From: Acidimicrobiaceae bacterium
GTDB lineage: Bacteria; Actinomycetota; Acidimicrobiia; Acidimicrobiales; Aldehydirespiratoraceae
Direction of reading: 5' to 3'
Length of the DNA: 64,000 bases
Assembly: GCA_009845995.1 (NCBI GenBank)
Contig: VXYK01000039.1
Span: 2,640 to 66,639 of the forward strand
The translations under genes were made by a program, and so were the position numbers. Position 1 is the stretch's first letter; each line of letters starts with the position of its first letter. The notes beneath the pieces are model-generated. The model did not search any database. It saw nothing but the letters and a program-made list of their open reading frames with translations, and had not been told where the DNA came from. This document shows, piece after piece, positions 31,642 through 49,818 of this stretch.

Positions 31642-32385
31642 CTAGAACCACACAGCTGCCTTGGACGCGCTGTTCGCGTTGAGCGCCGCCAACGTTTCCT
31701 CATCGACCAACACGTCGACATCGGGCGTGCCTTCGATCACCTCCGCCAAGTCTTGACCTCCGAGGTCGATGAAGCGGAGGGTTCCCTGGGGGAGTCCGAA
31801 TTCTTCTCTCTTGGCCTCGGTCAACGGTCGCGGCCGGAACAGCACAGCGCTAGAGGCGCGTGCGTCAAGTCGGAACGTCGCCCGGGCGAGCCAGGAGCTC
31901 GACCGCTTCGGCAGTCTCCGCTCGGCCAACGTGCCGGATGTCCAGTCCGGCGACAACGCCACGTACGCGTCGATCACGGCACCGTGGCTTCCAGCGCAGA
32001 ACACCGGCGTACGATCTCCGTTCGGACGCCGATCGAGGCGAGTGCACCGTTCGAGATCTTCGAGCCTCTCAAGCCCATGATCAACGAGCTTCTCAGCGAG
32101 CTTGAGGCTGCCAGATCTGGCCACGACCACCAGGCGAAGCCACCGGGGATGGACCCCGATCTCCAGAGCCGCGTTGGTCAACTTCGTCCGGAATCGGTCG
32201 AAGTCGCCCTCGGCCGCCCAAACAAGCCGCACTTCACGTCGGACAAATGTGCCGTCATCAACAGTAAGGCTTGACCCGGCCCGGCAGGGAAGGTCGTCGT
32301 CAAGCAGTACCTCGGTCTCACTCAGCGAAGAACTCAGAGCCGAACCTACGGTGTAGGGACGAACCGTTCGCTTCTCGCGACTCAT
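31642..32385 (-). CDS. Hypothetical protein (247 aa), member of the candidate operon
   Basis: ATG 32385 overlaps the GHKL ORF stop (ATGA). No motif recognised. The plus-strand 300 aa ORF opposite is judged a shadow. Confidence 0.6.
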   Translation of the reverse strand: MSREKRTVRPYTVGSALSSSLSETEVLLDDDLPCRAGSSLTVDDGTFVRREVRLVWAAEGDFDRFRTKLTNAALEIGVHPRWLRLVVVARSGSLKLAEKLVDHGLERLEDLERCTRLDRRPNGDRTPVFCAGSHGAVIDAYVALSPDWTSGTLAERRLPKRSSSWLARATFRLDARASSAVLFRPRPLTEAKREEFGLPQGTLRFIDLGGQDLAEVIEGTPDVDVLVDEETLAALNANSASKAAVWF

Positions 32386-34391
32386 GGGTCGCGCCTAGTG
32401 AAACCGGATCTTTGTTCGGCTCCTGCCGACACGAAGTCCGCGTCGACGGTGAGTTCGACTGTCCAATCAGGTTCATACGGCTCGCAGCTGTACTCGAACA
32501 CAACTTCTTGACCTGCTTCGAGACGTCCCATGAAAATGTCGGGTCTCTCGGGGTCCCGGCCAAATCCTCGAGGGGCGTCGATCTCGATCTCCAGCAAATC
32601 CGAGCGGCGGTCCTCAGCGACAAAGCCGCATCGGATCGCCACCTCAACCTCATCACGGGGGTCAACCACATGATCGTGGTGCGCGCTGAAACCGATTTTC
32701 GCCGTTCCGCTGAGTTCAAGCCGACCATCGGGAGCTTCGGTGAGCCGTTGGCCCGGTTCAATTGTGAAGGGCCGCGGACCAGCCTGCGGTGGCGACTGCC
32801 TACCGCGGGCCAATCCGCGCAGCAGCAGACGCATGAGACGATCCCATTCGGGCAGGCGTAGCTGGTCGGCATCGGGAGTCCGTGGCCTGATGCTGCGGCT
32901 GAACTGGGCGACGTGATCCTTGATCCGATCCAGGACAAATCTCGCGACCGCGGTGTCCTCGGGCCGGACATCGGAACCGTCACTGGTTGACTCCCAAGCG
33001 TCGTGCAGTTTCGGCTCGGTCTGCCGCAGCGCTTCGTTGACCGCTTCGTCCGCAACGAAGACTCCGCGAATGTGCGGAGCTTTCTTCCGGGCCTCGAAGT
33101 GCTCCACGACCATGCGCGGCGATCGCACGAGTGCTACGAGGCTGCGATGCTCAACCTCGTCGTCATCTAGATCATCCGGGTCGTCCGGTGCCGGCTGCGA
33201 CCAGCCCGGCAGTTCGGTGACCAGACCTAGATCCCCGACCTTTTTGTTACCGGCGTGAGGACCCAGCTCATGCTTGCGGGCATTGTCCCGTTTGGCGTCC
33301 TGAGAGGTCGTCGCCACCTGATAGGCATCGATGAACGGGCGCAGATTCGGGTTTGACTTCGGACGCGGGACAAGTCCCCCCGCAGTTTCCGGCGCGGTCT
33401 CGTTGACGATGCTCACGTCGAACTGCAGTTCACCGCCGTCCTCCAAGGCCGGCCACCAATAGCGTTCAACGGCACGTTTGAGGTCAGCCGGATCCACCGT
33501 CGGACAAACCAACAGCATCGTCGTGCCGATCTGTTCCGGGTACTCCGCGGAGCGCAGTTCCAACCCTAGACCGGCCGCTAGTTCGTCAGCCTCCCCGTCT
33601 TCCGCGGGGACGATCTCGTCCCGGCTACCGCGTTCGGAACCGTAGTGCGCCCAGCCCTCATGGTGCTTACCATCAACTTCGTGCGGTCCCCAGTAGGTCA
33701 TGCCGAGAAGACGGCGCGTCACGAAATTGTCTTCAGCCAAACCGCCGAAGCACGAGTAGGCGATCACGGTTCGGATGGCGGACGCACGGATCAGGCCGGC
33801 CTTGCCGTAGCCGAAGGAGCCGCCCCGCCCATCGGAGGCCGGGGTGAATCCGGTGCTGCACATCGCCAGCCAGAGTTTCGACTGCTGGGTACCCCAACCA
33901 CCGCCCATACCTCCCCCGCCGGACTCTTTGACCTCCAAGAGACGCAGGTCTCCACCTCGGCTGAGTTCGGCAAAGCAGTCGCTCTCGGCTAGGCCGATAT
34001 GTCGCCTGTCTTCAACCCGCGCAGCCCGATCTTCAAGTTCATCCAAACCGAAGCGGTTGATCAGCGCGTCGGCTTCATCACCGTCGACATCGAAGAAGCG
34101 GAAGCGGATCTCAAAAGGCAGCCGCTCTTCAGGTGCTTGCGACCTTCGACGTTCCATCGCCGCGTCCCAGGCATTCTGTATCGCTTCGCGGGCCAGCAGT
34201 GCAGCGTCGGGAGGGATCGCATCCGCGGAAAAGAACCCGGGTGCCTTCACCTCTTCGTTTCGGAAGACCTTCGCCAAGTCGCCACTGGCACCGAACGTGG
34301 TGGCATTGACCACAGGCCACGACCATCTAGGTGAACGCATCGCCGGGAGTGTAGGCGATTTGGACCACTCGGTTGCCAGCCGCGGATCCAC
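32382..34391 (-). CDS. GHKL (Bergerat-fold, MORC/Hsp90-like) ATPase-domain protein with a long uncharacterised C-terminal region
   Basis: N-box LLAREAIQNAWDA, a Gly-rich block LLEVKESGGGGMGGGWG (G1-like, with E in place of D), and a G2-like RGGSFGYGKAG. About 420 further residues carry no motif I recognise. The start is either GTG 34391 (abutting the tag stop) or ATG 34340. Confidence 0.7.
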   Translation of the reverse strand: MDPRLATEWSKSPTLPAMRSPRWSWPVVNATTFGASGDLAKVFRNEEVKAPGFFSADAIPPDAALLAREAIQNAWDAAMERRRSQAPEERLPFEIRFRFFDVDGDEADALINRFGLDELEDRAARVEDRRHIGLAESDCFAELSRGGDLRLLEVKESGGGGMGGGWGTQQSKLWLAMCSTGFTPASDGRGGSFGYGKAGLIRASAIRTVIAYSCFGGLAEDNFVTRRLLGMTYWGPHEVDGKHHEGWAHYGSERGSRDEIVPAEDGEADELAAGLGLELRSAEYPEQIGTTMLLVCPTVDPADLKRAVERYWWPALEDGGELQFDVSIVNETAPETAGGLVPRPKSNPNLRPFIDAYQVATTSQDAKRDNARKHELGPHAGNKKVGDLGLVTELPGWSQPAPDDPDDLDDDEVEHRSLVALVRSPRMVVEHFEARKKAPHIRGVFVADEAVNEALRQTEPKLHDAWESTSDGSDVRPEDTAVARFVLDRIKDHVAQFSRSIRPRTPDADQLRLPEWDRLMRLLLRGLARGRQSPPQAGPRPFTIEPGQRLTEAPDGRLELSGTAKIGFSAHHDHVVDPRDEVEVAIRCGFVAEDRRSDLLEIEIDAPRGFGRDPERPDIFMGRLEAGQEVVFEYSCEPYEPDWTVELTVDADFVSAGAEQRSGFTRRDP

Positions 34392-35057
34392 TCATTTCCG
34401 CGCTTCTTGGCGCAGGGACTCGATGGCGGGGCGGCGGTGACAACCCTCAAGATGATCGTTCACAATGCCGGCCGCTTGCATCAGGGCGTAGCAGGTGGTG
34501 GGTCCCACAAAGCGCCAGCCCTGCTTCTTGAGCGCTTTGCTCATCGCGGTTGACTCAGCGGTTGTCGCCATGGCTGACACGGTGGCGTGATCGATCCGCG
34601 CCGGGCGGACCACAGAATCCGGCTCGAAACTCCAAAAAAACGCGGCCAGGCTGCCGTGCGTCTGCACAGTGTCCAAGGCCGCGCGGGCGTTGTTGATCGT
34701 CGCTTCGATCTTTCCCCGATGGCGGACGATGCCTGCATCGCCGAGCAGTCGATCCACATCGGACGCACCAAAGCGGGCCACCTGCTCGAAGTCGAAGCCA
34801 CAGAAAGCGGCTCGGAAGTTCTCTCGTTTGCGGAGGATCGTCAACCAGGAAAGACCCGACTGGAAGCCTTCGAGGCACATCTTCTCGTACAGCCGCACAT
34901 CGTCTGTGACCGGTACACCCCACTCCTGGTCGTGGTATGCCGAGTAGTCGTCGTGCCCCTCCCCCCACCAGCAAGCCAAGGTCGCATCGACCCGCCGCAG
35001 TAGACCGGCAGGAGCTCCGCCATCGGAGTCATCGGTGCCATTGGCGTCATCGGCCAC
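34392..35057 (-). CDS. tag: DNA-3-methyladenine glycosylase I
   Basis: CWWGEGHDDYSAYHDQEWGVPVTDDVRLYEKMCLEGFQSGLSWLTILRKRENFRAAFCGFD ... is the Tag signature. GTG start 22 nt after the AAA+ gene stop. Confidence 0.85.
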   Translation of the reverse strand: MADDANGTDDSDGGAPAGLLRRVDATLACWWGEGHDDYSAYHDQEWGVPVTDDVRLYEKMCLEGFQSGLSWLTILRKRENFRAAFCGFDFEQVARFGASDVDRLLGDAGIVRHRGKIEATINNARAALDTVQTHGSLAAFFWSFEPDSVVRPARIDHATVSAMATTAESTAMSKALKKQGWRFVGPTTCYALMQAAGIVNDHLEGCHRRPAIESLRQEARK

Positions 35058-35079
35058 AACCGAACTCCCGCCGAATCGC

Positions 35080-36504
35080 TCAACCGCGGCTGCGGAATTG
35101 GGATTTGGCGCCCTGACCGTCTTTGTTGAGCCGCTTCAGCAGGTGAAGACCCTCGAGGATCAACTCAGTAGCACTGGCCACCAGCGCTGGAGATTCAGCT
35201 TGATCCTCATCAGACAACAGCGCCTGCACCGGGGGAACAAGAGCCGGAATCTGCTCCAGCATCGCCGTATATGCCTCGTCGGTGACATCTTCCCCCGTGT
35301 CGACTACGAGGTCCCCCTCAAACGCCTCGACCACACCAAGATGCGTGTCAGGCGGCACTCGCTCTTTGAACACCGCGAGCACCGCGGCGCGCACCAGATT
35401 GTGAAGAATCTCGCCATCGCGCCCCTCATCGAGAGTTTCCATCTCGACTTTCCCCGAAGTCGACGCGGGGAGCGCTTCAAGATCGACTATGCGCGGCACT
35501 ACGTGACTGCCACCGGCACGCAAGGTGCGCCGCACCGCGTTGGCCACCATGATCTCCTCGTTGGCGATCGAGAGCCGCACTGACACACCTGAACGTTGCG
35601 AGATGTGCTGGCTGGCCCGGGCCGCGTGAGTCAGGGTCGCCACGATCTCACTCATGAACGACGGGACCGATACCTCGATATCGGTGGCGAAGGCAACATC
35701 GGCCTCTTGTTCAACGATCGCCATCTCAGTGTCGACATCGAGGGGGTAGTGGGTGCGAATCTGAGAACCGAAGCGATCCTTCAGCGGGGTGATGATCCGG
35801 CCTCGATTCGTGTAATCCTCCGGATTCGCTGAGGCAACGAGCACCACGTCAAGGGGAAGCCTGACCTTGTGACCGCGGATCTGTACGTCCCTCTCTTCCA
35901 GCACGTTGAGCAGGCCAACTTGAATGCGCTCGGCTAGGTCGGGCAGCTCGTTCATCGCGAAGATCCCACGGTTGGTGCGCGGTACAAGGCCGTAGTGGAT
36001 TGTGAGTTCGTCGGAGAGATAGCGGCCCTCCGCCACCCGGATCGGATCCACCTCGCCGATGAGATCAGCGATGGAGGTGTCTGGAGTGGCCAGCTTCTCT
36101 CCTAGGCGATCATCACGGTGGACCCACGAAATAGGCGTGTCGTCGCCGTGCTCTTCGATCAGATCACGGGCATGGCGCGAGATGGGATTGTAAGGATCGT
36201 CGTTGATCTCCGATCCCGCAACGATCGGCATCCATTCGTCGAGAAGGTTGCTGAGGCCGCGAATCATGCGAGTCTTGGCCTGCCCCCGTTCCCCCAAGAA
36301 GATGATGTCGTGACCGGCAATCAGGGCATTGGAAAGCTGAGGGTTGACCGTGTTGTCATAGCCGATCACCTCGCTGAACAGCGGGTCGCCGCTGCGTATG
36401 CGCTTGACGGTGTTGTTTCGCAGTTCTTGACGGACAGGGATCGACTCCCATCCGCTCTTACGAAGCGCCCCCAGGGTCTCGGGTCTCGTCTCTGGTCTCG
36501 ACAT
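35080..36504 (-). CDS. AAA+ ATPase of the ChlI/MoxR-like ('magnesium chelatase-like') type
   Basis: Walker A FLGERGQAKT, Walker B and sensor region GIFAMNELPDLAERIQVGLLNVLEERDVQIRGHKV, and VLVASANPEDYTNRGRIITPLKDRF. Confidence 0.8.
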   Translation of the reverse strand: MSRPETRPETLGALRKSGWESIPVRQELRNNTVKRIRSGDPLFSEVIGYDNTVNPQLSNALIAGHDIIFLGERGQAKTRMIRGLSNLLDEWMPIVAGSEINDDPYNPISRHARDLIEEHGDDTPISWVHRDDRLGEKLATPDTSIADLIGEVDPIRVAEGRYLSDELTIHYGLVPRTNRGIFAMNELPDLAERIQVGLLNVLEERDVQIRGHKVRLPLDVVLVASANPEDYTNRGRIITPLKDRFGSQIRTHYPLDVDTEMAIVEQEADVAFATDIEVSVPSFMSEIVATLTHAARASQHISQRSGVSVRLSIANEEIMVANAVRRTLRAGGSHVVPRIVDLEALPASTSGKVEMETLDEGRDGEILHNLVRAAVLAVFKERVPPDTHLGVVEAFEGDLVVDTGEDVTDEAYTAMLEQIPALVPPVQALLSDEDQAESPALVASATELILEGLHLLKRLNKDGQGAKSQFRSRG

Positions 36505-38725: not shown

Positions 38726-39739
38726 ATGGACATCGTCCTTGAAGCGGAGATCAGCCCGCAGATGAGCACCGCGTCCACAGTGCGGCTGGCTCAAATGGTC
38801 GAAGACACGGGCTTCGCCCGGCTCGGCATTTCCGATGTGGTGTATTGGCCCGACTCATTCATGGTCCAAGCTCTCTGCGCTCAGGCCACGAACCGCATCG
38901 CCGTGGGGGCCATGGTGACGAACCCCTACACCCGTCACCCGGTTGTGTTGGCGGGAGCATTGGCAACGCTCGACGATCTTGCTGGTGGTCGGGCATTCTG
39001 CGGGCTGGGTGTGGGGGCCGGTTTGGAGCCGCTGGGTATCGACTACCCGAAACCGGTGGCCGCGCTGCGCCGAACCGTGACCGAGATCCGTACCCTGTTG
39101 AACGGCGAGGAGGCTGGTGGTGAACGCCTGATCCGTCCGCCCACGCATCCGATCCCGATCTCCATCGGCACACGCAGCCCTCAAGTGATGCGCTTGGCCG
39201 GGGAGGTAGCCGACATCGCCCTAGTCGGCGGGCGTTATCTTTCGGCGGAGTTGGCCGCACAATACCGATCCTGGCTGGCAGACGGCGCGGGCCGTGTGGG
39301 GCGCGCGCTTGAGGACTTGGAGGTAGCGCCTCGCTTGACTCTGTGCTGCTCGCCCGACGGCGATCTGGCGCGGCGCAGCGTCAAACGCTACGTGGCTCAC
39401 TACCTCACCCTGATTCGCCCTGCCGAACTGGCGGTTGAACCTGAACGCATGACCGCCATTGAGAGTGCTCTGGCGCGGAGTCAGGGTTGGTACTTCGACC
39501 ACAACCGGACCGACGACGAAGCCCTCGACCATCTCATCGACAACCGTCTGGTGGAGGCTTTCACCATCGTCGGCACCCCCGACGAGTGCGCGCAGCAGCT
39601 TGAATCCGTTCTCGACATGGGCTTCACCAGCGTCAGCCTCAACCTCGCCGCTACGGCCCGCTCCACCGCCACCGAGGGTCTGGCCGAAACCATCACGTCC
39701 TTCTCCCCCGTGGTCGCATCGCTCACGGCCTCTTCATAA
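38726..39739 (+). CDS. LLM-class (luciferase-like) flavin/F420-dependent oxidoreductase
   Basis: GFARLGISDVVYWPDSFMVQALCAQATNRIAVGAMVTNPYTRHPVVLAGALATLDDLAGGRAFCGLGVG. Confidence 0.75.
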   Translation: MDIVLEAEISPQMSTASTVRLAQMVEDTGFARLGISDVVYWPDSFMVQALCAQATNRIAVGAMVTNPYTRHPVVLAGALATLDDLAGGRAFCGLGVGAGLEPLGIDYPKPVAALRRTVTEIRTLLNGEEAGGERLIRPPTHPIPISIGTRSPQVMRLAGEVADIALVGGRYLSAELAAQYRSWLADGAGRVGRALEDLEVAPRLTLCCSPDGDLARRSVKRYVAHYLTLIRPAELAVEPERMTAIESALARSQGWYFDHNRTDDEALDHLIDNRLVEAFTIVGTPDECAQQLESVLDMGFTSVSLNLAATARSTATEGLAETITSFSPVVASLTASS

Positions 39740-39745
39740 GCCAGC

Positions 39746-39755
39746 CACCCAAGCC
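39746..39755. repeat. Left copy of the 10-bp direct repeat CACCCAAGCC bracketing the dnd island
   Basis: Read directly 7 nt after the LLM gene stop. An identical 10-mer occurs at 54567-54576, just upstream of sdhC. Confidence 0.3.
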
Positions 39756-39894
39756 CCTTTTAGCCAGGGAGCAGACCGATTCAGCCACCGGATTTACGGT
39801 GTTCAGCGTTCTTGCTACCGTATGTCGTGGACTATCAAGGCGTCGAGCGTGGTTATCGCCACGACCAGTCCATTTGCCGGAGGAAATCGCTTCG

Positions 39895-41958
39895 ATGACA
39901 GTGGAAACTCCTGGGACGGTTGAGATAGAAAACACGAGCGACGGAGTTTCTGAAGCGCGAAATCCCTCGGACTCAATGCGGGCCGATGTCGAGGATGCTC
40001 GCCAAGTCCTTCGGCAAGGCAGCGGAAACGGGGCCAGAAGTAAATCTGCTCGTACCCCCACTGAAAGTGCTCACAAGCAGACGGACTCTGATAATTCCAC
40101 CGCGACATTGGGGCCTCTACCTAAAGCGGGTCCTAGATCCATCACGCCCGTCTGGGGACTCAAGCTCGTAGATCACTACAGTTGGATTGCTGATGTCGCC
40201 GACGAGCCAATAGATCTAGCAGTGTTTGACGCGAGGTCGAGAACAGCGTTTAGACGCGGACATATTCGAACTTGGGGAGAATTGGGGGGACAGACGAATG
40301 ATTCGCTCCACACGATTCCGGGCATAGGCGATCTCACAGTTCGTCGCATCAACCAAGTGCTCACAGCGCATGGCCCCGTCGTGCAAGAGCGATTGGCTAT
40401 CGACGCGATGCAACGTCAGACCGTTTCCAAGCGCGAGCACGGCTCCGCTCCACCCAACTTCAACCTGCGGATTGCCATCGAATGGGCAAGTGCTCACACA
40501 GATGACCAGACACTAGCTGGACTTCTGAGGGTCTACGACCGAGGAGTTGAGATCCCAGCGAACGTAGCCGACGAGATGGAGACACTACTCGCCACCCCAC
40601 TATCACGACTAACAGATCACGAAGTACCCCAGCTCGGCGAGTTAATCGAAGAGTTGCTATCGCAGGCAAAGGATCCAGAGTTGCTTGCGTCGCGTGAGTT
40701 CTCGCAGGTACGACCCACTTTGGCGGAGCTGGGTCGTGATCAAGGCGTTTCCCGGGAACGGGTACGACAGAAGGTAGCTAAGGATGCAAAACACTTACGC
40801 AAACTTCTTGTATGCGAACGATTCCAGACTGTTCGATGGGCTGTCGGGAGATTGCAAGCGGAGTTTGGGGTCGCGATCCCGACCGATAGCGAACCCGTGA
40901 AACGATGGGAAACAAGACTTGGTGACCGCCAATCCAAAGCCCTGCGGTGGCTTGCAGGCTATGTCTACGACGGCAATTGGATTTACCGAGGCAAAGGCGG
41001 ACGATCGCATCTTGCCAGGATGCTTGGCAATCTTGTTGGAGATGAGTGGTTAATCAGTACCGAGGATTTGCTCGGCGGCCTAGACCCATCGGTGAACCCG
41101 AGTGCCGCAATTGGCTTCTTCTCGGAGTCCGGCCGGTGGCGAGACATCGGGGATGGGTGGTTCGTCCGGTGGGATGGTCCAATTCAAGCGAAAGCTGAGC
41201 GGGTTCTCCGGTTGACATGTCGGCCTATGGCGCCTGACGACCTAATTGAAGCGATCGGTCATGGCTCGGCCACAAGCCTGAAGAATCAATACAAACCTAG
41301 TTTGGTTCGCGTTGACAAGCAGTTTCGTCTGGCGCTCCGAGAATGGGGATACGAGGAGTACGAAGGGATCACAACCGAGATTGAGCAGAGGATTGACCGA
41401 GGCGGGGGCATCGCATCTGTGTCAGCGATGATCGAAGAGTTCGTCTCTGACTTCGGCGTCAAAGAGGGATCGGTTCGAGCATATCTGGAGGTCGGTCCCT
41501 ACCTCATCTCGGGCGACGAGGTACGCCGTCTTGCCAACCGCGGTTACACACCAAGCAGTGTTTCGGGGCGGCAGCATGCCATACCGATCAGAGAGAAGTG
41601 GGGCCAGCGCTTCACCGTGTCCGATACCAACCTGAAAGGGTATTCTTTTGGCCTGGACCGAGACATCGCCGCCCACAACGGGCTTCAGCCGGACGACTCC
41701 CTAGTTGTTCCTGCCACGCATTCGGGTTCTATCGTTGGAGAGGCTTCGCTCATCTGGAGGCTAACCAATATCAGCGGGACAGTAGATGTGGGCCGGCTCA
41801 GCAGCGTTCTCAAAGAACTGGGGATAGACGCAGGCGAGGAAATCGTCATTGTTGCCACACCTGAGTCGTGCGCCGTGTTGCGCGACAGCGAGACGCCCCA
41901 GCAGGGGCGCTCAGCTATAAGCGCAGACATACGGCGGTCCCTTCTCGGGCGTGATTGA
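39895..41958 (+). CDS. Large DNA-binding protein with an RNAP alpha-CTD-like HhH and a sigma-70 region-4-like HTH
   Basis: ARSRTAFRRGHIRTWGELGGQTNDSLHTIPGIGDLTVRRINQVL (alpha-CTD-like) and TLAELGRDQGVSRERVRQKVAKDAKHLRKLL (close to the sigma region 4.2 consensus). The C-terminal roughly 330 aa are unassigned. Start taken at ATG 39895. Confidence 0.6.
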   Translation: MTVETPGTVEIENTSDGVSEARNPSDSMRADVEDARQVLRQGSGNGARSKSARTPTESAHKQTDSDNSTATLGPLPKAGPRSITPVWGLKLVDHYSWIADVADEPIDLAVFDARSRTAFRRGHIRTWGELGGQTNDSLHTIPGIGDLTVRRINQVLTAHGPVVQERLAIDAMQRQTVSKREHGSAPPNFNLRIAIEWASAHTDDQTLAGLLRVYDRGVEIPANVADEMETLLATPLSRLTDHEVPQLGELIEELLSQAKDPELLASREFSQVRPTLAELGRDQGVSRERVRQKVAKDAKHLRKLLVCERFQTVRWAVGRLQAEFGVAIPTDSEPVKRWETRLGDRQSKALRWLAGYVYDGNWIYRGKGGRSHLARMLGNLVGDEWLISTEDLLGGLDPSVNPSAAIGFFSESGRWRDIGDGWFVRWDGPIQAKAERVLRLTCRPMAPDDLIEAIGHGSATSLKNQYKPSLVRVDKQFRLALREWGYEEYEGITTEIEQRIDRGGGIASVSAMIEEFVSDFGVKEGSVRAYLEVGPYLISGDEVRRLANRGYTPSSVSGRQHAIPIREKWGQRFTVSDTNLKGYSFGLDRDIAAHNGLQPDDSLVVPATHSGSIVGEASLIWRLTNISGTVDVGRLSSVLKELGIDAGEEIVIVATPESCAVLRDSETPQQGRSAISADIRRSLLGRD

Positions 41959-44194
41959 GGGACTTGTGCCAGGGTTGCGCGAAATCGAGTGGCAAACTAC
42001 CTACTCGACAGACAAGGACGACCTCGTCGCCGCGTTCTACCAGCCTTGCCTAGAACGCTCAACGGCCTATTGGCGAGCCGTCGGCTACTTCTCCAGCAAA
42101 GTCCTGGCTCTGATTTCACCCGCAATCGAACGGTTCTACGCCCAGAACGGCGCGATGCGGATTGTGGCCTCGCCTGCTTTATCTGAGGCAGACAGGGCGG
42201 CGATTCGGAATGCCTACAAGAAGCGGGCTGAAGGCGAGCAGTTACAGGAAGATGAAACAGTAATAGCCTGCCTTCGCCGGTATCTCGATCCCAGCCGATT
42301 GGAGTCCGGTGAGGAGCGGCTTCGCCTCCAATTGCTTTCCGGCATGATTCGGGACGGGCTTCTCGATCTCCGAATCGCAGTCCGATCGCACGACAACGGC
42401 GATGTGGGCCTTTACCACGAGAAAATCGGTGTCTTCGTTGATGCGCACGGGGACTATGTGACGTTCAACGGCTCACCTAATGAAACGTGGAACGGCTGGG
42501 TCCTCAATGCCGAGAGTTTCGCGCTTCATAGGTCTTGGGGCCCCGAAGCCGGACATGCCCACAACGAGCGGTTGCTCTTTCAGCAAACATGGGAGGAGCA
42601 GCGCCCCGGAGTCTCGCTATTCCAGCTCAACGACGCGGTCACCTCGGCGCTGTTTGAACGGTTCCCCCCTCTCGACCCCGATGACGTAAGGCGTAAAGGT
42701 GTGTCCTCGTTTCGGCTCCCTAAGCGCTCCTCGGAGGAAGAACCAGATCTCGGCTTGTCCTACCCCGAGTTCCTTGCGGACGGTTTACGCGACTACCAGC
42801 AGAAGTGCGTCGAAGACTGGTTCAAGGCCGGCTGCCGGGGGACATTCGCCCTTGCCACGGGTACCGGCAAGACAGTGATCGCACTGACTGCCGCCCGCCA
42901 GTTCGCTGAAGAACATGCCCGGAACGGGGAATCGACACTCGTACTGATAGTCGTCCCAACCAAGGACTTAGCCGGACAATGGCAGCGCAACGCCAGACAG
43001 TTCAATTTCCCTACCACCACTTGCAACAGCGATAGCCCCGGCTGGCCCGACAAATTGAAGATCGCCATCTCAGGGTTGCAAGGCTCGGAACCGGGAGTCT
43101 GGTGCGCCATCGTCACGGCGGACACAATGACCGGAGAGAGGTGGAAAACCCTGTCCGCGGGTATCGACAACCTAGATGGAAACCTGCTTGTCGTTGGGGA
43201 CGAGATGCATTCCCTAGGGACACAGCGGAGACTTCGCTGCTTGCCTGGTCGCGATCGTCCTACTGTCGGCAAGGTCGGACTGTCCGCCACCCCGCGGCGA
43301 CACAACGACGAGCACGGCACAGAGGAGCTGCTTGACTATTTCGGCGAAGTCCTCGCCAGCATCGACATCGCTGAGGCCATTCGGCTCGGTGCCCTCACTC
43401 CGTATACATATAACCCCGTCATTGCGCACCTGAGTGGCGACGAACAGGAGATGTTCGAGAGCCTCAGCCGAGAGATCGGAAAGGCCTGGCAGTCAAGCGC
43501 AGGAGATGACGAAAAGTTCTACCGCATTGCCGGACGATATCTGAGTGAACGCACCAAGTTGCTGAGCCACGCCGAGGAGAAAACGCAGAAAGGTCTAGAG
43601 CTCGTTAAGGCGGGACGGGCGAACAACTATCAGATCCTCTACACAGGCGAGGGAGCCCACCCGTTGACCGGAGTGGTTCAGATCAACCACTTTGTGGCGG
43701 AGTTTCGCAAGGCAGGGATGTCGGCCAACAAGTACGACTACCAGACCAGCCCCGACCAGCGCCAGATGAACCTCGACATGTTCCGGGGCGGCGAACTCGA
43801 CGTGCTAGTTGCAATGAAATGCCTCGACGAAGGAATCGACATCCCCGAAGCGCGGCGCGGTGTCATCTTGGCGAGCACACAGAACCCACGGCAGTTCGTC
43901 CAGCGCCGTGGCCGGCTCCTTCGAACGGCACTAGGCAAGAAAAGCGCCGAGCTGGTAGACGTGCTTTGCCTCCCCACCAGGCCACTTGACCGGGCAAGCG
44001 AGGCGTACATCTCCGAACGTAACCTCGTGTCTCGCGAGCTGACTAGGGCGCTGGAACTAGCGGAGGCCGCGACCAACGGCAAGTATGCTCCGCCCGTTGC
44101 GCTGACAGAGATCATCGCCGCCTACGATCTCTTTGAGTTGACAGAGAACTACGGAAACCGAACTGATTGGATGCCAACAGCGGAATTGGAATGA
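41951..44194 (+). CDS. PLD-family (HKD) nuclease domain fused to an SF2 (type III Res-like) helicase; probable PT-linked restriction component
   Basis: HKD motif GLYHEKIGVFVDAHGDYVTFNGSPNET. Helicase motifs ATGTGKT (I), VVGDEMHS (II), SATPRR (III) and QFVQRRGRLLR (VI). GTG start overlaps the upstream stop by 8 nt. Confidence 0.85.
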   Translation: MIEGLVPGLREIEWQTTYSTDKDDLVAAFYQPCLERSTAYWRAVGYFSSKVLALISPAIERFYAQNGAMRIVASPALSEADRAAIRNAYKKRAEGEQLQEDETVIACLRRYLDPSRLESGEERLRLQLLSGMIRDGLLDLRIAVRSHDNGDVGLYHEKIGVFVDAHGDYVTFNGSPNETWNGWVLNAESFALHRSWGPEAGHAHNERLLFQQTWEEQRPGVSLFQLNDAVTSALFERFPPLDPDDVRRKGVSSFRLPKRSSEEEPDLGLSYPEFLADGLRDYQQKCVEDWFKAGCRGTFALATGTGKTVIALTAARQFAEEHARNGESTLVLIVVPTKDLAGQWQRNARQFNFPTTTCNSDSPGWPDKLKIAISGLQGSEPGVWCAIVTADTMTGERWKTLSAGIDNLDGNLLVVGDEMHSLGTQRRLRCLPGRDRPTVGKVGLSATPRRHNDEHGTEELLDYFGEVLASIDIAEAIRLGALTPYTYNPVIAHLSGDEQEMFESLSREIGKAWQSSAGDDEKFYRIAGRYLSERTKLLSHAEEKTQKGLELVKAGRANNYQILYTGEGAHPLTGVVQINHFVAEFRKAGMSANKYDYQTSPDQRQMNLDMFRGGELDVLVAMKCLDEGIDIPEARRGVILASTQNPRQFVQRRGRLLRTALGKKSAELVDVLCLPTRPLDRASEAYISERNLVSRELTRALELAEAATNGKYAPPVALTEIIAAYDLFELTENYGNRTDWMPTAELE

Positions 44195-44195
44195 A

Positions 44196-44399
44196 ATGGA
44201 CACCAGAGAGATCAACTCAGACCGGCCGACAACCGAAGCGGTCGACGACATTGTCGGACGATTGGCGCCAGACGAGGTTGCAACACTCCAATGGCTCATC
44301 AATGAGATCCGCGGGCGTTTCGGCGCGTCAGACAACTTCGACCCCGACGATCCCAAATTCAACGAGCTGGTAAAGCAGCTGGCGTCGAGAGTGATTTGA
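44196..44399 (+). CDS. Hypothetical small protein (67 aa)
   Basis: ATG 1 nt after the helicase stop, and its own stop lies 1 nt before the next ATG. The only support is this tight operon packing. Confidence 0.5.
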   Translation: MDTREINSDRPTTEAVDDIVGRLAPDEVATLQWLINEIRGRFGASDNFDPDDPKFNELVKQLASRVI

Positions 44400-44400
44400 G

Positions 44401-46512
44401 ATGCGGCTAGAGAGCATAAGACTCGTCAACTGGCGGAGCATTCGCTCTTGCGACATGGACCTGAGTGCGAACGTAACGGTCGTAATCGGGCAAAACACCG
44501 CTGGCAAGACAGCCCTCCTCAACGCTTTCGTATGGTGCTTGTACGAACAGACAACCCCCGGCTTCTCCAAACCTGACGACCTGTGCAACCATCAGGCGAA
44601 GCTTGAATTGAGCGTGGGGAAGGAAACCAAAACAGAGGTAGAGGTGATCTTTTGCCACGGCGTTGGTGAGGCCGAGCGCAGATACGTGTCACGGAGGTCG
44701 CTGACAGTCAGCCGGACAGGCCCTGGCAATGAAGACTTCGACGAAGGAAAGCCCCAGTTGGTGTTGAGCATCTATCCCTTGGGACCCTCAGGCAACACTA
44801 GGCAAGCACGGGGCGAAGACGCCCAGCAGGAAATTCAAGCAATCATCCCGGCCAGCCTGAACCCCTACTTCTTCTTCCCGGCCGAGAACATCGGCTCGTC
44901 AATAGGTTCCCCTGACGCAAGGGCGGCATCAGTCAAAGACGCTGTAAGCGTCTTGCTCGGGTTGAGGCGGTACGAGGTTGCCGACGCCGCCATCAAATCG
45001 GCGCTGCGTTTGCCGAAACTCAAAGAGAAGGCATCCAACGACTTCGATATCCGAAAGGCTCAGGAGCGCAAGGACAATGCCAGGGAGGAATACGACCAGG
45101 CCCGATCCGATCTGTCGGATTTGGACGACCAAATTGTGCGCGTGCGGCAGCTGCAGGAGGCAGCAGAACAGGCGGCCAAGCGAGCCGACGAAGAGAGAGA
45201 GCTAATCGAGGAACGCAATCGGATCAAGGGGGAATATGAACAGGCGAAGCAGGAAGCGGATGACGCCACCGCCAGCCGGCGAGAGGCGCTGAACAAAGAG
45301 TGCTTCAACCTGTTCGGCACCGGAGCGCTGGAGCAAGCAAGGCAAGTCCTCGACAGGGCCACATCCGACGCCCGAATTCCGCCGAAAGTGTCCGCAGGTC
45401 TGCTTGACGACCTGATCGCCAACGCCCAGAAGTGTATCTGCGGTCAACCGATCACCGACGCGGAACGCGGCACCCTCAGCAGGCTTCGCCGCGAAGTCGT
45501 GGAAGATATTGTGGCCGAGTCGGCTAGCAACATCCGGGCACGCGTGGCTGAAATAAGCGCCCAGCTGTCGGCGAGACAAAACGAAACATCTCCGCACACC
45601 GTGCTGAGAGCCGCTAACGAAGCTATAGCCGACGCACACCGGAGCATGGCGACATGGGGCACCAAACTCGACGAGTTCTATGCGGAAAACCCAGCGGTCG
45701 AAGGAGATTCAGGCTCTAATCCCCTCAACGCGTTCATTCAACACTCTCGCACCCTCGAGAACCTCAACAGAGAGCAAAGCGACCTCCGAGAACATGTAGA
45801 CGCGTTGGCAAGGGCGAGACGCGAAGCGGACAACCAATATGACAAGCTGAAAAAGAAACGAGGCCAAGCGGATGAAGTCAGTAACGCCAGGGGCCAACTG
45901 ACCCGTATCGAAGCAGCAGTAGAGGACATCCAGGTGGAGTTGAGCGATGGTTCGCGACGCGATCTCCAGCGGGCCATCAACAAAATTGCCAGCGAAGTGC
46001 TGCTGCGGGACTACACAATTCACCTGACAGAGAACTTCGACATCGAAGCTCGGCAGAACGGCATCAACATCGGAGGCTCATCGTCAGACCACTCCTGGGT
46101 TACGTTCGCGTTCGTAGGAGCAATCTCTGGCCTGATCGACATGTACGACAGGGAACTCGACAACATGGACGAGGCAGGCAACATCGAACTGAAACCAGGG
46201 GCCGGGTACCCGCTGGTGCTTGATGCACCGTTCTCGCCGTTCGGCGAAAGGTATGCCGCTGAATTCGCTGATCGGTTGCCCGATCTTGCCCCCCAGTCAG
46301 TCTTGATAGTCCGCGAGGATCAGCTTGCACATCTCGAGCCAATCTTGAATGCCGGACCGGACAAGACCCGCGTGTATCTGATGTGCCTCCATGGGCCCCC
46401 CACAGCCGAAAAACAGGAGATCCCGTGGCGCGACAATTCCAGGCGTGCTTACGTAATTCCGTCTGACGACCCGAACAACATCCGCACAGTGCTAGAAGAG
46501 CTTCCTCTATGA
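44401..46512 (+). CDS. SMC/Rad50-like ABC ATPase, DndD-like paralogue
   Basis: MRLESIRLVNWRSIRSCDMDLSANVTVVIGQNTAGKTALLNAFVWCLY (Walker A), a long coiled coil, and C-terminal YPLVLDAPFSPFGERY (Walker B/D-loop). YFFFPAENIGS parallels the DndD FDGEKIE segment. Confidence 0.8.
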   Translation: MRLESIRLVNWRSIRSCDMDLSANVTVVIGQNTAGKTALLNAFVWCLYEQTTPGFSKPDDLCNHQAKLELSVGKETKTEVEVIFCHGVGEAERRYVSRRSLTVSRTGPGNEDFDEGKPQLVLSIYPLGPSGNTRQARGEDAQQEIQAIIPASLNPYFFFPAENIGSSIGSPDARAASVKDAVSVLLGLRRYEVADAAIKSALRLPKLKEKASNDFDIRKAQERKDNAREEYDQARSDLSDLDDQIVRVRQLQEAAEQAAKRADEERELIEERNRIKGEYEQAKQEADDATASRREALNKECFNLFGTGALEQARQVLDRATSDARIPPKVSAGLLDDLIANAQKCICGQPITDAERGTLSRLRREVVEDIVAESASNIRARVAEISAQLSARQNETSPHTVLRAANEAIADAHRSMATWGTKLDEFYAENPAVEGDSGSNPLNAFIQHSRTLENLNREQSDLREHVDALARARREADNQYDKLKKKRGQADEVSNARGQLTRIEAAVEDIQVELSDGSRRDLQRAINKIASEVLLRDYTIHLTENFDIEARQNGINIGGSSSDHSWVTFAFVGAISGLIDMYDRELDNMDEAGNIELKPGAGYPLVLDAPFSPFGERYAAEFADRLPDLAPQSVLIVREDQLAHLEPILNAGPDKTRVYLMCLHGPPTAEKQEIPWRDNSRRAYVIPSDDPNNIRTVLEELPL

Positions 46513-46985
46513 ATCGACAAAGATCCAGGGACCGCGTCAGGATTTCTGACGAAAACGCCCCGGTACTGGAGGCATTGGGCGACAACACCACGCTGGTCCC
46601 TGTGTTCAACAGTCAGGCCGAAGCGGTCGCGTTCGCTGCAACTGTCGGGTACCACTTCGACAAGTTCGAACCAGTGGAAGGTCAGAAGCTAAAGGCGATT
46701 CTCTTCCAGCAGATTGACAACACCACCAACCTCGGCAGCTATCTCGACGCCGTCTTCGCTCTCGCCCGTACTAAAGACATCGACGTCCTAGGGCCCCTAG
46801 AAGACGAGGTCAGCCCGACAATGGACCGCGTCCTCATTTTCGAGGGCTACGTCAACGGTGGTCTCTCCTATCTCCGCAAACAGGGCTTCGATGCTGCCCA
46901 GCCAATCGATGCAGTGCTCAGCCTGGCCCGTACACTCGATCCGAAGAATTCGGACCTCCTTAGAGGCCCCGCAAATAGGCGCTGA
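46509..46985 (+). CDS. Hypothetical protein (158 aa), last gene of the five-gene operon
   Basis: ATGA overlap with the ATPase stop. No motif recognised with confidence. It might correspond to a 'dnd-associated' small protein family. Confidence 0.55.
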   Translation: MNRQRSRDRVRISDENAPVLEALGDNTTLVPVFNSQAEAVAFAATVGYHFDKFEPVEGQKLKAILFQQIDNTTNLGSYLDAVFALARTKDIDVLGPLEDEVSPTMDRVLIFEGYVNGGLSYLRKQGFDAAQPIDAVLSLARTLDPKNSDLLRGPANRR

Positions 46986-47105
46986 TCTGCAGAAATGCCT
47001 GAATCTCCGACTGAAGCTTCGGCATCTTGACCTGCGGCTTTGCTTGGAGCGGCCACAGTTGCAGCAAAATCCGTTGAGATTCTTGTCACCTATTTGCGCG
47101 CGCTC

Positions 47106-48569
47106 TTAGCCGCTCTTGACGCGCACGACGCGGTGGCCCCGGAGTGCGACACCGCATTCGCTTAGGCGTTCTTGCCAGCCGCGGAGGTTCCCGATCGTTC
47201 TGGTGTCCGTGTCAAAAAGACCAAACCGTTCCTCTTGAGCAGTAAGGCGGGCGAACTTCTGGCGCGAGGGATAGTCGCTTGCGACGAAGGTCTCCTTTCG
47301 GTGGAGGATGGGAGGATTGGCCGTACTGGTGTAGTCGCGTTCATCGACATCCAGTGCACCAATCCGGACGAATGTCGTCCGATGCAGGACTGGATGAGGA
47401 TCCTTGTCGAATGCGGGGTATTCCAGGTAGGACACCTTTGGCCTGTTAGTAGCCAGCTTGATGATATTGGCCCCATCGACTTCCCCGACTAGCCATCTTG
47501 CGCAACCCTCATAGACACGGAGCACATGGGGGAGGTCGGGAAGTGCTGATTCGTGCACGTACAGGGAAGTGGGGAGACGCTTCCCTACTGGAGACTCGTC
47601 AGCAGCGCCGGCGACGACCTGGGAGTCACCGGTGCTGAAGAGGAGTTGATCGGCCTCCGCGGTTGCCTGTTTGTATGACCCGATGAGCCCTCGAACGTCA
47701 TACCGGGTCGTCTCTGGTAGCGCGGTGAAAGTCGGTCGTCGATTGAGCTTGAGGAGGGCCAGGTCGACAAGAAGGTCGAGTCGCCGCTCAGCCGAAATGG
47801 TGTCCCAATCTGTCTCCGGCGTCACCATCACTGCAACGCGCCAGGCTCGGCGCAGCGACCCGGCAGCTTCCTTCAGCTTTGCTTGCAAGTCGGGTCGTTC
47901 AGTCCGGGAGGGCAGGCGTCCTCGCTCGCTGTAGAACTCCATTAGTGCGTCAATCGACTCCCGGTGTTCGTCGTAGATGCGATCGCTCCTCGAAACCTTG
48001 GCGGCGTGGCGCCTGCGAGGTCGCGTCCGCATCAGGAATTCATTGGCGACCGCTTCAGCCTTGAACGCCACGAAGATCCCGGGGGCGATGGCGACGGTCT
48101 CCGATTCGAGAACCGTGTCGAGCCACGACCGCAGCTCTCCTTGGCTGTAGAACTTTTGAAATGTCCCGTGCCCGGTGATGAATCCATCACCGTGTGGCCG
48201 GCCTTTCGAGACAGTACGTAGTTCACCGTTCAGCCTCGCCGAGACGACCAGCGCCTTTTCTGTGAGCTCCCAGGCATCTAGGGCTGCGTCTCTCCTCTCC
48301 GAAGGATCAGGAATGACATTGATCACATACCCAAGGTTGACGACTTCTGCGCTTGCCTTCTCGACATCTGGGCGGAAGTGTGGATCCCAGCCATTAGCTG
48401 TGACCCCGGCGCGGGCGAGTCCTTCTACATCATCACCGTGTCCACAGCCGTAGTCGAAGAACGTGCCGCCCGTCGTCACCAGTCCAAGATCAGCCGCGAG
48501 CTGCACCGGGCGTGACAAGACTCCTCGGACCATCGCCGTGCGATGCCGATTCTCGGCTTGTGCGCTCAC
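47106..48569 (-). CDS. DNA phosphorothioation-associated putative SAM-dependent methyltransferase
   Basis: SAM motif I FFDYGCGHGDDVEGLARAG near the N-terminus, followed by a long C-terminal region. The size and context match the 'dnd-associated methyltransferase' family as I remember it. The GTG 48569 start overlaps the dndA stop (GTGA). Confidence 0.65.
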   Translation of the reverse strand: MSAQAENRHRTAMVRGVLSRPVQLAADLGLVTTGGTFFDYGCGHGDDVEGLARAGVTANGWDPHFRPDVEKASAEVVNLGYVINVIPDPSERRDAALDAWELTEKALVVSARLNGELRTVSKGRPHGDGFITGHGTFQKFYSQGELRSWLDTVLESETVAIAPGIFVAFKAEAVANEFLMRTRPRRRHAAKVSRSDRIYDEHRESIDALMEFYSERGRLPSRTERPDLQAKLKEAAGSLRRAWRVAVMVTPETDWDTISAERRLDLLVDLALLKLNRRPTFTALPETTRYDVRGLIGSYKQATAEADQLLFSTGDSQVVAGAADESPVGKRLPTSLYVHESALPDLPHVLRVYEGCARWLVGEVDGANIIKLATNRPKVSYLEYPAFDKDPHPVLHRTTFVRIGALDVDERDYTSTANPPILHRKETFVASDYPSRQKFARLTAQEERFGLFDTDTRTIGNLRGWQERLSECGVALRGHRVVRVKSG

Positions 48570-49699
48570 CGCAACGCGTTTGCGAGGCGCTCTGCCACAT
48601 CCATCCAATCGACCAGCACTGGGTCGTGGGACCACGAGACACGGAGCGCGCCTGAGGCACGCTCCGAAGCAAGGCCCATTGCCGAGAGGGCGTGCGAAGG
48701 CTCGTAGGAGCTCGAAGTGCATGCCGATCCGTTGGAGATAGCCACAAGGTCTCTGAGGATCATCATCGCTGCTTCCGCATCAAGCCCTGGGATGGACAGA
48801 TTCATGACGTGTGGGAGTACTTGGTTTTGGTCCCCGTTGTAGACCGGATCCAGGGTCTCAAACGCCGCAGTCGCCTTAGAACGTTCGGCAACGCAAGCTG
48901 ATGACCTCTTGCCCTGTTCCACCAGCGCTAGGCGGCAGGCTTCGCCGAGTCCGGCTACGAGAGGGACTGGGACGGTTCCCGGCCGCAGGCCCCGCTCCTG
49001 TCCACCTCCAAACATCAGCGGCGAGAGCGGAGGACGTTCGTATCCGCGCCGTCGGGCAATAAGCGCTCCAACACCCATAGGACCATAGAGCTTGTGGCCG
49101 GATACCGAGATCAGATCAATGCGTTTATCGGCCAATCCTCCGATCTTGCAGAAGCTCTGTGCGGCATCAACATGCCAGTAGGCGGGATGGCCCTTGAGCA
49201 CCTCGGCAATGTCGTTGAGGGGCTGGATAACCCCTGTTTCGTTGTTGGCATGCATCGTGCTGACCACGAACGTGTCGGGGCGCAGCCGATCGGCTAAGTC
49301 CTCCGGGTCGACCCAACCGCTTTCGGCTACAGGGACGAGCTCGAGCTCGACTCCTTTCGTCATCGCGAGCGCTTCGAGTGGCTCAAGGACGGCCTTGTGC
49401 TCGATCGCCAGCGCGAGCGCATGGCGACTACCAGTCCCCCACGCATGTTGCGCCAGACCCAGCAGAGCCAGATTGTTGGCCTCCGTAGCTCCCGACGTGA
49501 ACAAGACCTCATCGGGCATGGCACCGCACCCGTCAGCTACGTACGACCGAGCCTCCTCAACAGCTTGGCTAGCAATCATCCCATACTCATGGGTTCTAGA
49601 GCCTGCGTTGCCGAACTCGGTTTCCATATAGTGCCGTACCACGGCCGACACGCGGGTATCGACCGGTGTTGTTGAGCAGAAATCCAGGTAGGCGGGCAT
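48566..49699 (-). CDS. dndA: Cysteine desulfurase (NifS/IscS-like), DndA
   Basis: YLDFCSTTPVD, PLP-lysine motif SVSGHKLYGP, and catalytic Cys SNGSACTSSS. Divergent from dndC. Start taken at ATG 49699. Confidence 0.85.
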   Translation of the reverse strand: MPAYLDFCSTTPVDTRVSAVVRHYMETEFGNAGSRTHEYGMIASQAVEEARSYVADGCGAMPDEVLFTSGATEANNLALLGLAQHAWGTGSRHALALAIEHKAVLEPLEALAMTKGVELELVPVAESGWVDPEDLADRLRPDTFVVSTMHANNETGVIQPLNDIAEVLKGHPAYWHVDAAQSFCKIGGLADKRIDLISVSGHKLYGPMGVGALIARRRGYERPPLSPLMFGGGQERGLRPGTVPVPLVAGLGEACRLALVEQGKRSSACVAERSKATAAFETLDPVYNGDQNQVLPHVMNLSIPGLDAEAAMMILRDLVAISNGSACTSSSYEPSHALSAMGLASERASGALRVSWSHDPVLVDWMDVAERLANALR

Positions 49700-49818
49700 T
49701 TCACCCCTTGGGTCAGTCTCTTTCGTTGGCAGCGAGTCTACAATCCGTTGCACGGGAGACTCGTCGATTGACTGATCCCCGCGTCAAGCTAGGGATTCAA
49801 GCAAGGCGAAGGGGGTGT
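49700..49818. promoter_or_regulatory. Divergent dndA / dndCDE intergenic region with a 7-bp inverted repeat (CGAGTCT-17 nt-AGACTCG)
   Basis: 119-bp gap between the divergent starts. Inverted repeat at 49733-49739 and 49757-49763, read directly. AAGGCGAAGGGGG RBS region before dndC. Confidence 0.45.

Follow-up and report, generated by a model that had tools for sequence, protein, structure and literature searches.

A large multi-domain DNA-binding protein as a candidate partner of the Pbe restriction cassette in an Acidimicrobiaceae bacterium

In a stretch of 64,000 nucleotides from an Acidimicrobiaceae bacterium (GenBank assembly GCA_009845995.1, contig VXYK01000039.1; the whole stretch is referred to as the window) we analyzed a gene for a 687 aa protein that directly precedes the pbeABCD cassette, one of the three restriction branches proposed for defence based on phosphorothioate (PT) modification of DNA. 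The protein is probably an unrecognised DNA-recognition partner of the Pbe system, and we put at about an even chance that it acts as a non-enzymatic DNA-recognition or loading subunit working with PbeABCD. Its roughly 600 structured residues consist of seven nucleic-acid-binding modules, namely a helix-hairpin-helix (HhH) like that of the RNA polymerase (RNAP) alpha-subunit C-terminal domain (alpha-CTD), a sigma region 4 helix-turn-helix (HTH), four winged helices (WH) and a B3-like pseudobarrel, followed by a tail helix. Each of the seven is of a nucleic-acid-binding kind, and Pfam, NCBIfam and PADLOC found no catalytic domain in the protein; the simplest model is that of a subunit for DNA recognition or loading. 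The gene adjoins Pbe cassettes in distant relatives and in two gene orders, and the C-terminal part of the protein co-varies with the type of PbeA encoded beside it.

Domain architecture of the protein

The gene and the parts of its product are as follows (numbering of the window; evidence in brackets):

39895..41958, + strand: the complete gene, 687 aa, multi-domain DNA-binding protein, candidate fifth Pbe component (open reading frame (ORF), alignment, AlphaFold2 (AF2) model)
39880..39885, + strand: Shine-Dalgarno-like GGAGGA, 9 nt 5' of the ATG at 39895 (read from the sequence)
39895..40155, + strand: residues 1-87, non-conserved N-terminus predicted to be disordered (predicted local distance difference test (pLDDT), alignment A1)
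40156..40374, + strand: residues 88-160, RNAP alpha-CTD-like HhH (Pfam on relatives, profile, Foldseek, residue conservation)
40375..40632, + strand: residues 161-246, long linker helix then a helical domain of unassigned family (AF2 secondary structure)
40633..40812, + strand: residues 247-306, sigma-70 region 4 (4.1 + 4.2)-like HTH with recognition helix SRERVRQ (Pfam, NCBIfam, profile, Foldseek)
40813..41535, + strand: residues 307-547, four tandem WH domains (AF2 topology, Foldseek, per-domain conservation)
41536..41898, + strand: residues 548-668, B3-like DNA-binding pseudobarrel (domain model, Foldseek)
41899..41955, + strand: residues 669-687, linker and conserved C-terminal tail helix (SADIRRSLLGRD), a proposed docking motif (co-variation with PbeA type)

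A search of 5.8 billion proteins returned 77 relatives, many already annotated with PF03118, and 37 close relatives were aligned (alignment A1). A profile search of 1.84 billion cluster representatives returned 5659 proteins at E ≤ 1e-3, 1912 at E ≤ 1e-10 and 795 at E ≤ 1e-30; the best matches were mostly 650-750 aa long and aligned over nearly their full length. A distant set comprised 60 diverse representatives with 20-40% identity to the protein. The AF2 model had a mean pLDDT of 82.8, with the core above 90.

The original prediction, made from the sequence alone, had proposed alpha-CTD-like and sigma region 4-like modules, and both peptide strings that it quoted are present in the protein (residues 115-156 and 276-304). 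Taken singly, the protein falls below threshold for both, with E = 0.27 and 11.4 bits against RNA_pol_A_CTD (PF03118; cutoff 23.8) and E = 0.0022 and 17.9 bits against Pfam Sigma70_r4 (cutoff 24.1), and NCBIfam gave weak matches to the RpoH C-terminus. At the level of the family both modules were borne out. PF03118 was detected in 34 of the 37 close relatives (best 1.2e-14) and 37 of the 60 distant representatives (best 8.9e-29), and PF04545 (Sigma70_r4) in 24 and 54 of them, respectively (best 3.4e-13 in the distant set). The family profile built from A1 matched the solved structures of RNAP alpha-CTDs (E = 6e-6) and of region 4 of RpoS, SigA and RpoD (E about 1.4e-4). In Foldseek the AF2 model aligned with the Escherichia coli alpha-CTD (3n4m_B, 8y5t) at a TM-score (TMt) of 0.72-0.79, a root-mean-square deviation of 1.6-1.8 A and 24-25% identity, and with actinobacterial sigmaA region 4 at a TMt of 0.60-0.65.

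The protein has in common with the RNAP alpha-CTD and sigma-70 region 4 the key DNA-contact residues as well as the folds. The equivalent of alpha R265 (R114) is kept in 36 of the 37 sequences of A1 and that of G296 (G145) in all 37, and the K298 equivalent has been lost. The equivalents of sigma70 T583, R584, E585, R586, R588 and Q589 are conserved, giving a recognition helix of the TRERIRQ type in which E288 and R291 are invariant. No match to Sigma70_r2 (region 2) was found in the protein or in any of the 60 distant relatives, region 3 gave a single weak match, and the protein had no Pfam match to RNA_pol_A_bac or RNA_pol_L (the alpha N-terminal domain), its N-terminus being disordered. Since it has no alpha N-terminal assembly domain and no sigma region 2, identities as an RNAP subunit and as a true sigma factor were both rejected.

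The remaining 330 or so residues, left unassigned by the original prediction, can now be described, on the basis of AF2 and Foldseek, as four winged helices, then a B3-like pseudobarrel and finally a tail of the docking type. The winged helices (WH1 307-367, WH2 368-427, WH3 428-490, WH4 491-547) each show an H-S-H-H-S-S order of helices and strands in the AF2 model, and in the whole-model Foldseek search this part matched the tandem-WH proteins UFL1, SelB (WH2-4) and DndG (7exx), with the C-terminal domain matching plant B3 domains and BfiI. A HARE-HTH (PF05066) identity, expected for WH3, was dropped, as it was found in 7 of 37 close relatives at E ≤ 1 (best 0.009) and in 1 of 60 distant ones at E ≤ 0.01. 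The beta-rich part spans residues about 560-665 and is followed by a short C-terminal helix (677-683). When residues 548-687 were modelled separately from an alignment of 27 diverse fragments (pLDDT 91.5), the top 21 Foldseek matches in the PDB were exclusively of the B3/pseudobarrel fold (FUS3, LEC2, VAL1, ARF, VRN1, RAV1, NGA1, TEM1, BfiI, EcoRII-N). The plant B3 matches reached a TMt of 0.54-0.61 at a probability of 0.9-1.0, and those to BfiI (2c1l, 3zi5) and EcoRII-N (3hqf) were weaker, with a probability of 0.16-0.6. The models thus support the fold, a B3-like pseudobarrel of seven strands and two short helices, but homology is not proven because the Foldseek E-values lie between 0.011 and 0.4.

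The ORF runs from the ATG at 39895 to a TGA ending at 41958. Its exact start is uncertain: the frame stays open upstream to a GTG at 39799, and the database copy (P0001), identical in sequence, begins in its annotation at a later Met and has 660 aa. As residues 1 to about 83 are not conserved in A1 and are predicted to be disordered (pLDDT below 50), the start is of no consequence for the interpretation. Some relatives carry a second alpha-CTD copy in this N-terminal position, seen as second upstream high-scoring segment pairs; in A1 a second upstream HhH of this kind was noted in P0002-P0004, P0014, P0033, P0038, P0039 and P0049, with possibly a third copy in P0038 and P0049. The protein of the window has just a disordered remnant at this place.

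Association with the Pbe cassette

The gene opens a cluster of genes read in the same direction, and its stop codon overlaps the GTG start of pbeA by 8 nt (GTGATTGA, 41951-41958). The original prediction placed it at the head of a nuclease/helicase/SMC operon. A defence operon of a PT system is indeed present, specifically PbeABCD and then dndA, dndC, dndD and dndE, but the supposed SMC protein is a CxC-type ABC ATPase. The genes that follow are:

41951..44194, + strand: pbeA, HKD (phospholipase D-type) nuclease fused to a superfamily 2 (SF2) helicase (PADLOC PbeA 1.6e-186; TIGR04095 1.8e-115)
44196..44399, + strand: pbeB candidate, 67 aa, exactly filling the gap between pbeA and pbeC (position; conserved in relatives)
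44401..46512, + strand: pbeC, CxC-type ABC ATPase with the motif KCICGQP (PADLOC PbeC 2.1e-68)
46509..46985, + strand: pbeD, DndE-like protein, dnd_assoc_4 (TIGR04062 3.6e-15)
47106..48722, - strand: PT-associated putative methyltransferase (TIGR04096 3.1e-166, match from residue 57)
48566..49753, - strand: dndA-like cysteine desulfurase (Aminotran_5 7.2e-62)
49666-51366, + strand: dndC, PT modification (TIGR03183 3.4e-189)
51363-53345, + strand: dndD, PT modification (TIGR03185 5.5e-143)
53338-53730, + strand: dndE, PT modification (PF08870 5.4e-38)

Rakesh et al. (2024) re-described Pbe as a CxC-ABC-ATPase/DndE system that includes an HKD-SF2 nuclease-helicase and a disordered protein of small size (PMC10853773); the latter corresponds to the 66-aa PbeB of the earlier description (PMC6459918). 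The 67-aa ORF at 44196-44399 is kept at 50-80% identity in related loci and is likely PbeB, a small disordered component easily missed by gene callers. The PADLOC Pbe models did not match the 687 aa protein, the four Pbe genes were recognised separately downstream, and a disguised PbeB or PbeD was rejected as its identity because both were identified on their own. The protein is thus none of the four defined components. An alpha-CTD/sigma-like protein is not among the associated genes in Xiong 2019 (PMC6459918) or Rakesh et al. (PMC10853773), in the searchable literature no description of the family as a Pbe component, no named fifth Pbe gene ("PbeE") and no paper since 2020 on PbeA, PbeC or PbeD that bears on it was found, and the PADLOC defence-finder models for Pbe do not contain it. 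Members of the family carry the names "hypothetical protein", "Sigma-70, region 4" and "sigma factor-like helix-turn-helix DNA-binding protein".

The position of the gene is conserved. A relative with 60% identity (P0002) has the gene order of the window with different flanks, and at locus L001 the homologue likewise stands directly upstream of pbeA-B-C-D. A scan of one genome per species yielded 23 loci, 21 of them in Acidimicrobiia-type actinobacterial metagenome-assembled genomes (MAGs), several named Candidatus Poriferisocius or Aldehydirespirator, and the other two in a Gemmatimonadetes MAG (L002) and in Propioniciclava (L024). The homologue was directly upstream of pbeA in 13 of the 23 (including L002, L004-L010, L012-L014 and L016), mostly together with dnd genes, although L009 had none within 10 kb. 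Among eight distant representatives (23-30% identity) whose neighbourhoods were sampled, seven adjoined a Pbe cassette, with the PbeA homologues confirmed by tblastn. Six of these (P0089, P0113, P0105, P0127, P0083, P0141) were convergent with pbeD-C-B-A at a spacing of 0-15 nt or with overlapping stops, the seventh (P0227) had a different N-terminus of 430 aa and overlapped pbeA from upstream, and P0100 was the only one located elsewhere. Homologues sit mainly in defence loci and not in housekeeping regulons. The description of the gene by the original prediction as leading an operon holds for the window but not as a conserved trait, the Ssp-linked majority of the distant sample being convergent with pbeD.

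In the convergent loci the modification genes beside the cassette differ as well. NCBIfam assigned none of the Ssp-like neighbours; at L028 PADLOC identified them as SspB (E = 4e-40), SspC (8e-293) and SspD (1e-108), and L025, L026, L030 and L034 had the same content by Pfam (PAPS-reductase, a protein of about 1150 aa, DUF4007). Two gene orders and two modification modules (Dnd and SspBCD) indicate that the gene follows the Pbe cassette and not a particular modification system.

A comparison between the window and L014 separates the cassette from its surroundings. The methyltransferase, dndA, dndC and dndD of the two loci are 85-95% identical, whereas the homologue of the protein is 45%, PbeA 34% and PbeC 22% identical. 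This contrast indicates that the gene and pbeABCD were exchanged as one unit beside a nearly unchanged modification side.

Within the protein, identity to relatives is distributed unevenly. WH3 is 57-84% identical everywhere and the N-terminal half uniformly 35-55%, whereas the values for WH4, B3 and the tail fall into two groups, one at 65-89% and one at 33-54%. These groups coincide with two types of PbeA (65-87% versus about 34% identity to the PbeA of the window), and the N-terminal half does not track PbeA type. In three relatives (P0033, P0036, P0039) an N-terminal half resembling type 1 is joined to a WH4-B3-tail of type 2, which points to recombination at the WH3/WH4 boundary. The tail helix reads S[DE]D[IVL]xRSLLGR beside type-1 PbeA and APDIAAMMEDL beside type-2, other branches have variants such as DPLLDLLG, and Ssp-linked members carry a longer helical extension. 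An acidic-hydrophobic C-terminal tail helix is kept by all co-directional Pbe-linked copies; it is missing in 7 of 8 copies that do not adjoin Pbe (L017-L020, L022, L003, L015) and degenerate in the eighth (L021). Because neighbouring genes have a common history, the cassette swap, the domain co-variation and the tail motif are suggestive of, but do not establish, a functional, and probably physical, link between the protein and the Pbe machinery.

Possible roles and comparison with known systems

On the favoured reading the WH4-B3-tail part would dock on the Pbe machinery, most likely on the HKD-nuclease/SF2-helicase PbeA. Recognition of a sequence, a modification state or both would come from the B3 barrel and the winged helices, and the faster-evolving alpha-CTD and sigma-4 pair would touch promoter-like DNA through the minor groove and a -35-like major groove. 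The outcome would be to place the nuclease-helicase on incoming DNA that does not carry the host PT mark. What has been observed is the domain content, the genomic linkage and the co-variation; contact between the proteins, DNA binding and a part in defence are inferred from these. The original prediction had offered three functions, reading of PT-modified DNA, recruitment of the complex to DNA and interference with phage transcription, and of these recruitment is best supported by the anatomy of the protein. Parallels to such a role would be DndG in DndFGH, two BREX proteins (BrxA, and PglW through its C-terminal half) and the B3-like domain that BfiI carries fused to its HKD nuclease.

In PglW of type-2 BREX (the Pgl system of Streptomyces) the C-terminal half consists of an alpha-CTD-like domain and, after it, three winged HTH (wHTH) domains (PMC12839542), so that a defence protein with an alpha-CTD-like helical domain ahead of HTH/winged-helix modules, as here, is already known. 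The PADLOC PglW model matched residues 103-317 of the protein over model positions 804-964 of 1403 (E = 5e-5) and 14 of the 60 distant relatives (best 1e-8), and the C-terminus of the MzaA model matched 28 of the 60. The original prediction held the borrowing of RNAP modules to be unusual for such an operon; with PglW as precedent the combination is not without parallel, and together with PglW and MzaA the protein shows a repeated reuse of RNAP promoter-contact modules in actinobacterial defence proteins. PglW, however, is a BREX member without a B3 barrel and has further domains (NERD nuclease, pseudo-kinase and active kinase, with an inactive STAND domain at the C-terminus), whereas the present protein is stand-alone and enzyme-free, with no kinase, NERD or NTPase domain found by Pfam.

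DndG (three wHTH), SspB/DUF4007 and BrxA are triple-HTH readers (PMC10853773, PMC12839542). Like the present protein they are non-catalytic, contain tandem wHTH domains and are encoded beside an ATPase/nuclease restriction module, and they fill the DNA scanning and recognition role proposed here. The PADLOC sequence models of DndG, SspB and BrxA did not match the protein, and the structural match to DndG (7exx) was weak (E = 0.04, probability 0.6), so the resemblance is architectural. The protein has four wHTH domains and not three, has an alpha-CTD, a sigma-4 and a B3 module in addition, and would have PbeABCD as its partner.

In BfiI a nuclease of the HKD/PLD type is coupled to a B3-like pseudobarrel that recognises DNA. 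The likeness is that the gene for the HKD nuclease PbeA adjoins that for a protein containing a B3-like barrel; in BfiI both domains lie in one polypeptide without a helicase or an ABC ATPase, whereas here nuclease and barrel would act in trans. Bacterial proteins in which features of the alpha subunit and of sigma occur together with HARE-HTH, reportedly described by Aravind and Iyer in 2012, might belong to this family. The kind of component is known, a multi-HTH reader in restriction-modification (R-M)-like defence, and the combination of alpha-CTD, sigma-4, four winged helices, B3 and tail and its attachment to Pbe appear to be new.

Several points weigh against the favoured reading. The docking partner is a guess, and as neighbouring genes are co-inherited, the co-variation with PbeA could partly reflect shared history and not contact. 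Archaeal PbeABCD defends with four genes only (PMC6459918), so the protein is not universally required. No PT-binding pocket of the sulfur-binding-domain (SBD) type was identified in it, and the E-values behind the B3 fold are modest. Paralogues also occur outside Pbe, beside Lhr and ABC-transporter genes, on mycobacterial and Microbacterium plasmids and at L035, and this set of folds must therefore also be used for other jobs.

A role as transcriptional regulator of the pbe (perhaps also the dnd) genes is the first alternative, which we regard as unlikely but worth keeping in view. The protein would be an outsized analogue of the R-M controller (C) proteins or of BrxR, with sigma-4 and alpha-CTD placed on its own promoter and a toxic nuclease-helicase repressed until needed. 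Sigma region 4, the alpha-CTD and winged helices are typical of promoter contacts and of transcription factors, the -35-reading residues of sigma70 are conserved, and the gene is either first in its operon or transcribed separately (convergently), as regulator genes often are. An overlap with the restriction-enzyme gene is likewise known for C-protein genes, paralogues that stand alone outside defence surroundings resemble ordinary DNA-binding regulators, and NCBI names a plasmid relative as a sigma factor-like HTH protein. Yet seven DNA-binding domains over about 600 residues go far beyond known defence regulators, and the co-variation of WH4-B3-tail with PbeA type and the loss of the tail in copies unlinked to Pbe argue for a protein partner rather than an operator site alone. 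No sensor or ligand domain was seen; in Pfam neither WYL nor an HTH_3-type C-protein match was found, and its 687 aa compare with about 80-100 aa for the controllers. A scan of 39600-47200, which is weak for this phylum, found no promoter-like site (2.1 expected from shuffles) and terminator-like sites at chance level; this uninformative scan is compatible with a single transcription unit.

A general chromosomal or mobile-element DNA-binding protein (partition-like, nucleoid-associated or for maintenance) that hitch-hikes in islands is quite improbable. Homologues of the sigma-4/WH/B3 core on actinobacterial plasmids, two paralogues in a stretch of small ORFs that also encodes a T2SSE ATPase and several copies beside HNH/DUF222 elements would fit it, but direct adjacency to Pbe in two orientations, often at a spacing of 0-15 nt or with overlapping stops, recurs at 23-30% identity and beside two modification systems, and hitch-hiking is hard to sustain across such distant relatives.

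We consider it very improbable that the protein is an RNAP-mimicking decoy or sensor, in which alpha-CTD and sigma-4 serve as bait for phage takeover proteins (anti-sigma or appropriator proteins, WhiB-like factors, alpha-CTD-modifying enzymes) and their capture or modification switches on PbeA; slightly less probable again is that such an event, relayed through the winged-helix/B3 body and the tail, licenses the nuclease-helicase. The two copied modules are those most often targeted by phage takeover factors, with T4 AsiA and MotA acting on sigma region 4 and T4 Alt and ModA on alpha R265, whose equivalent is here nearly invariant. The sigma-4 module finds its best structural matches in complexes of WhiB proteins with actinobacterial sigmaA region 4, and the N-terminal half evolves faster than the remainder of the protein and than PbeA. 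This evidence is, however, purely circumstantial, DNA binding explains the conserved DNA-contact residues equally well, and among Pbe-linked members one lacks the alpha-CTD (L016) and another has a differing N-terminus (P0227). Searches for relatives or partners encoded by phages were negative: tblastn against 50,697 phage records returned nothing, nor did Foldseek against BFVD at E ≤ 0.001, and on these searches a phage origin or a phage mimic was rejected. If the decoy were real, Pbe would join PT self-marking to effector-triggered sensing of transcription hijacking, and either decoy or docking on promoters would link restriction to transcription. What probability remains goes to some other role.

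A large, conserved, enzyme-free DNA-binding partner would be the obvious candidate for the recognition or loading factor in bacterial versions of Pbe, and the protein moves and recombines along with the cassette in Dnd-linked as well as Ssp-linked systems. The tail helix, the B3 barrel and the sigma-4 recognition helix offer mutable handles on it. For Pbe itself no DNA cleavage was found and PbeA was stated to have no nuclease site (PMC6459918), against which it has been argued that the HKD nuclease must cut (PMC10853773). At about residues 165-190, PbeA of the window has an apparently intact single HKD motif, YHEKIGVF...GSPNET (YHEKIGVFVDAHGDYVTFNGSPNET), which agrees with Pbe cleaving DNA (PMC10853773) and not with a PbeA free of a nuclease site (PMC6459918).

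Copies outside Pbe loci and other neighbouring genes

Five short paralogues (L017-L020, L022) of about 460-490 aa have neither alpha-CTD nor tail and lie beside Lhr or ABC-transporter genes, occupying a syntenic chromosomal site near the Lhr helicase gene in several Acidimicrobiia genomes; they may be unrelated to defence. L035 holds two paralogues (708 and 706 aa) without Pbe genes. Plasmid 2 of Microbacterium chocolatum (L032, 17.5 kb) encodes a relative of the sigma-4/WH core, named "sigma factor-like HTH DNA-binding protein" and 660 aa long, whose gene is flanked by those for a UvrD-like helicase, a 3'-5' exonuclease, DUF4011 and a DEAD-box helicase, possibly another nuclease-helicase system using such a reader. 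In Propioniciclava sinopodophylli (L024, 7844-17089) a distant homologue of 745 aa with alpha-CTD and sigma-4 stands between a NERD-UvrD helicase and a McrB-like AAA_5 protein, a different defence-island context.

Among loci with Pbe genes, L013 has two tandem paralogous copies (6905-8710 and 10001-11701) upstream of one pbeA. PbeABCD-like cassettes directly beside SspB-SspC-SspD-type PT genes were seen on six metagenome contigs (L025, L026, L028, L030, L031, L034), compared with the published pairing of Pbe with Dnd, and L030 has a TIGR04096 methyltransferase as well.

In the window, the listed ORFs of the TIGR04096 methyltransferase and of dndA overlap by about 157 nt. As the TIGR04096 match begins at residue 57, the true start of the methyltransferase is probably near 48554, which would make the overlap an ORF-calling artefact. 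Upstream of the gene, the minus strand at 32382-36504 encodes an ATPase of the MoxR/AAA_5 type (35080-36504), has an ORF of 221 aa and also encodes a protein of 669 aa that matched PADLOC PDC-M33A weakly (E = 2e-8). These genes may form another defence or MoxR-associated module.

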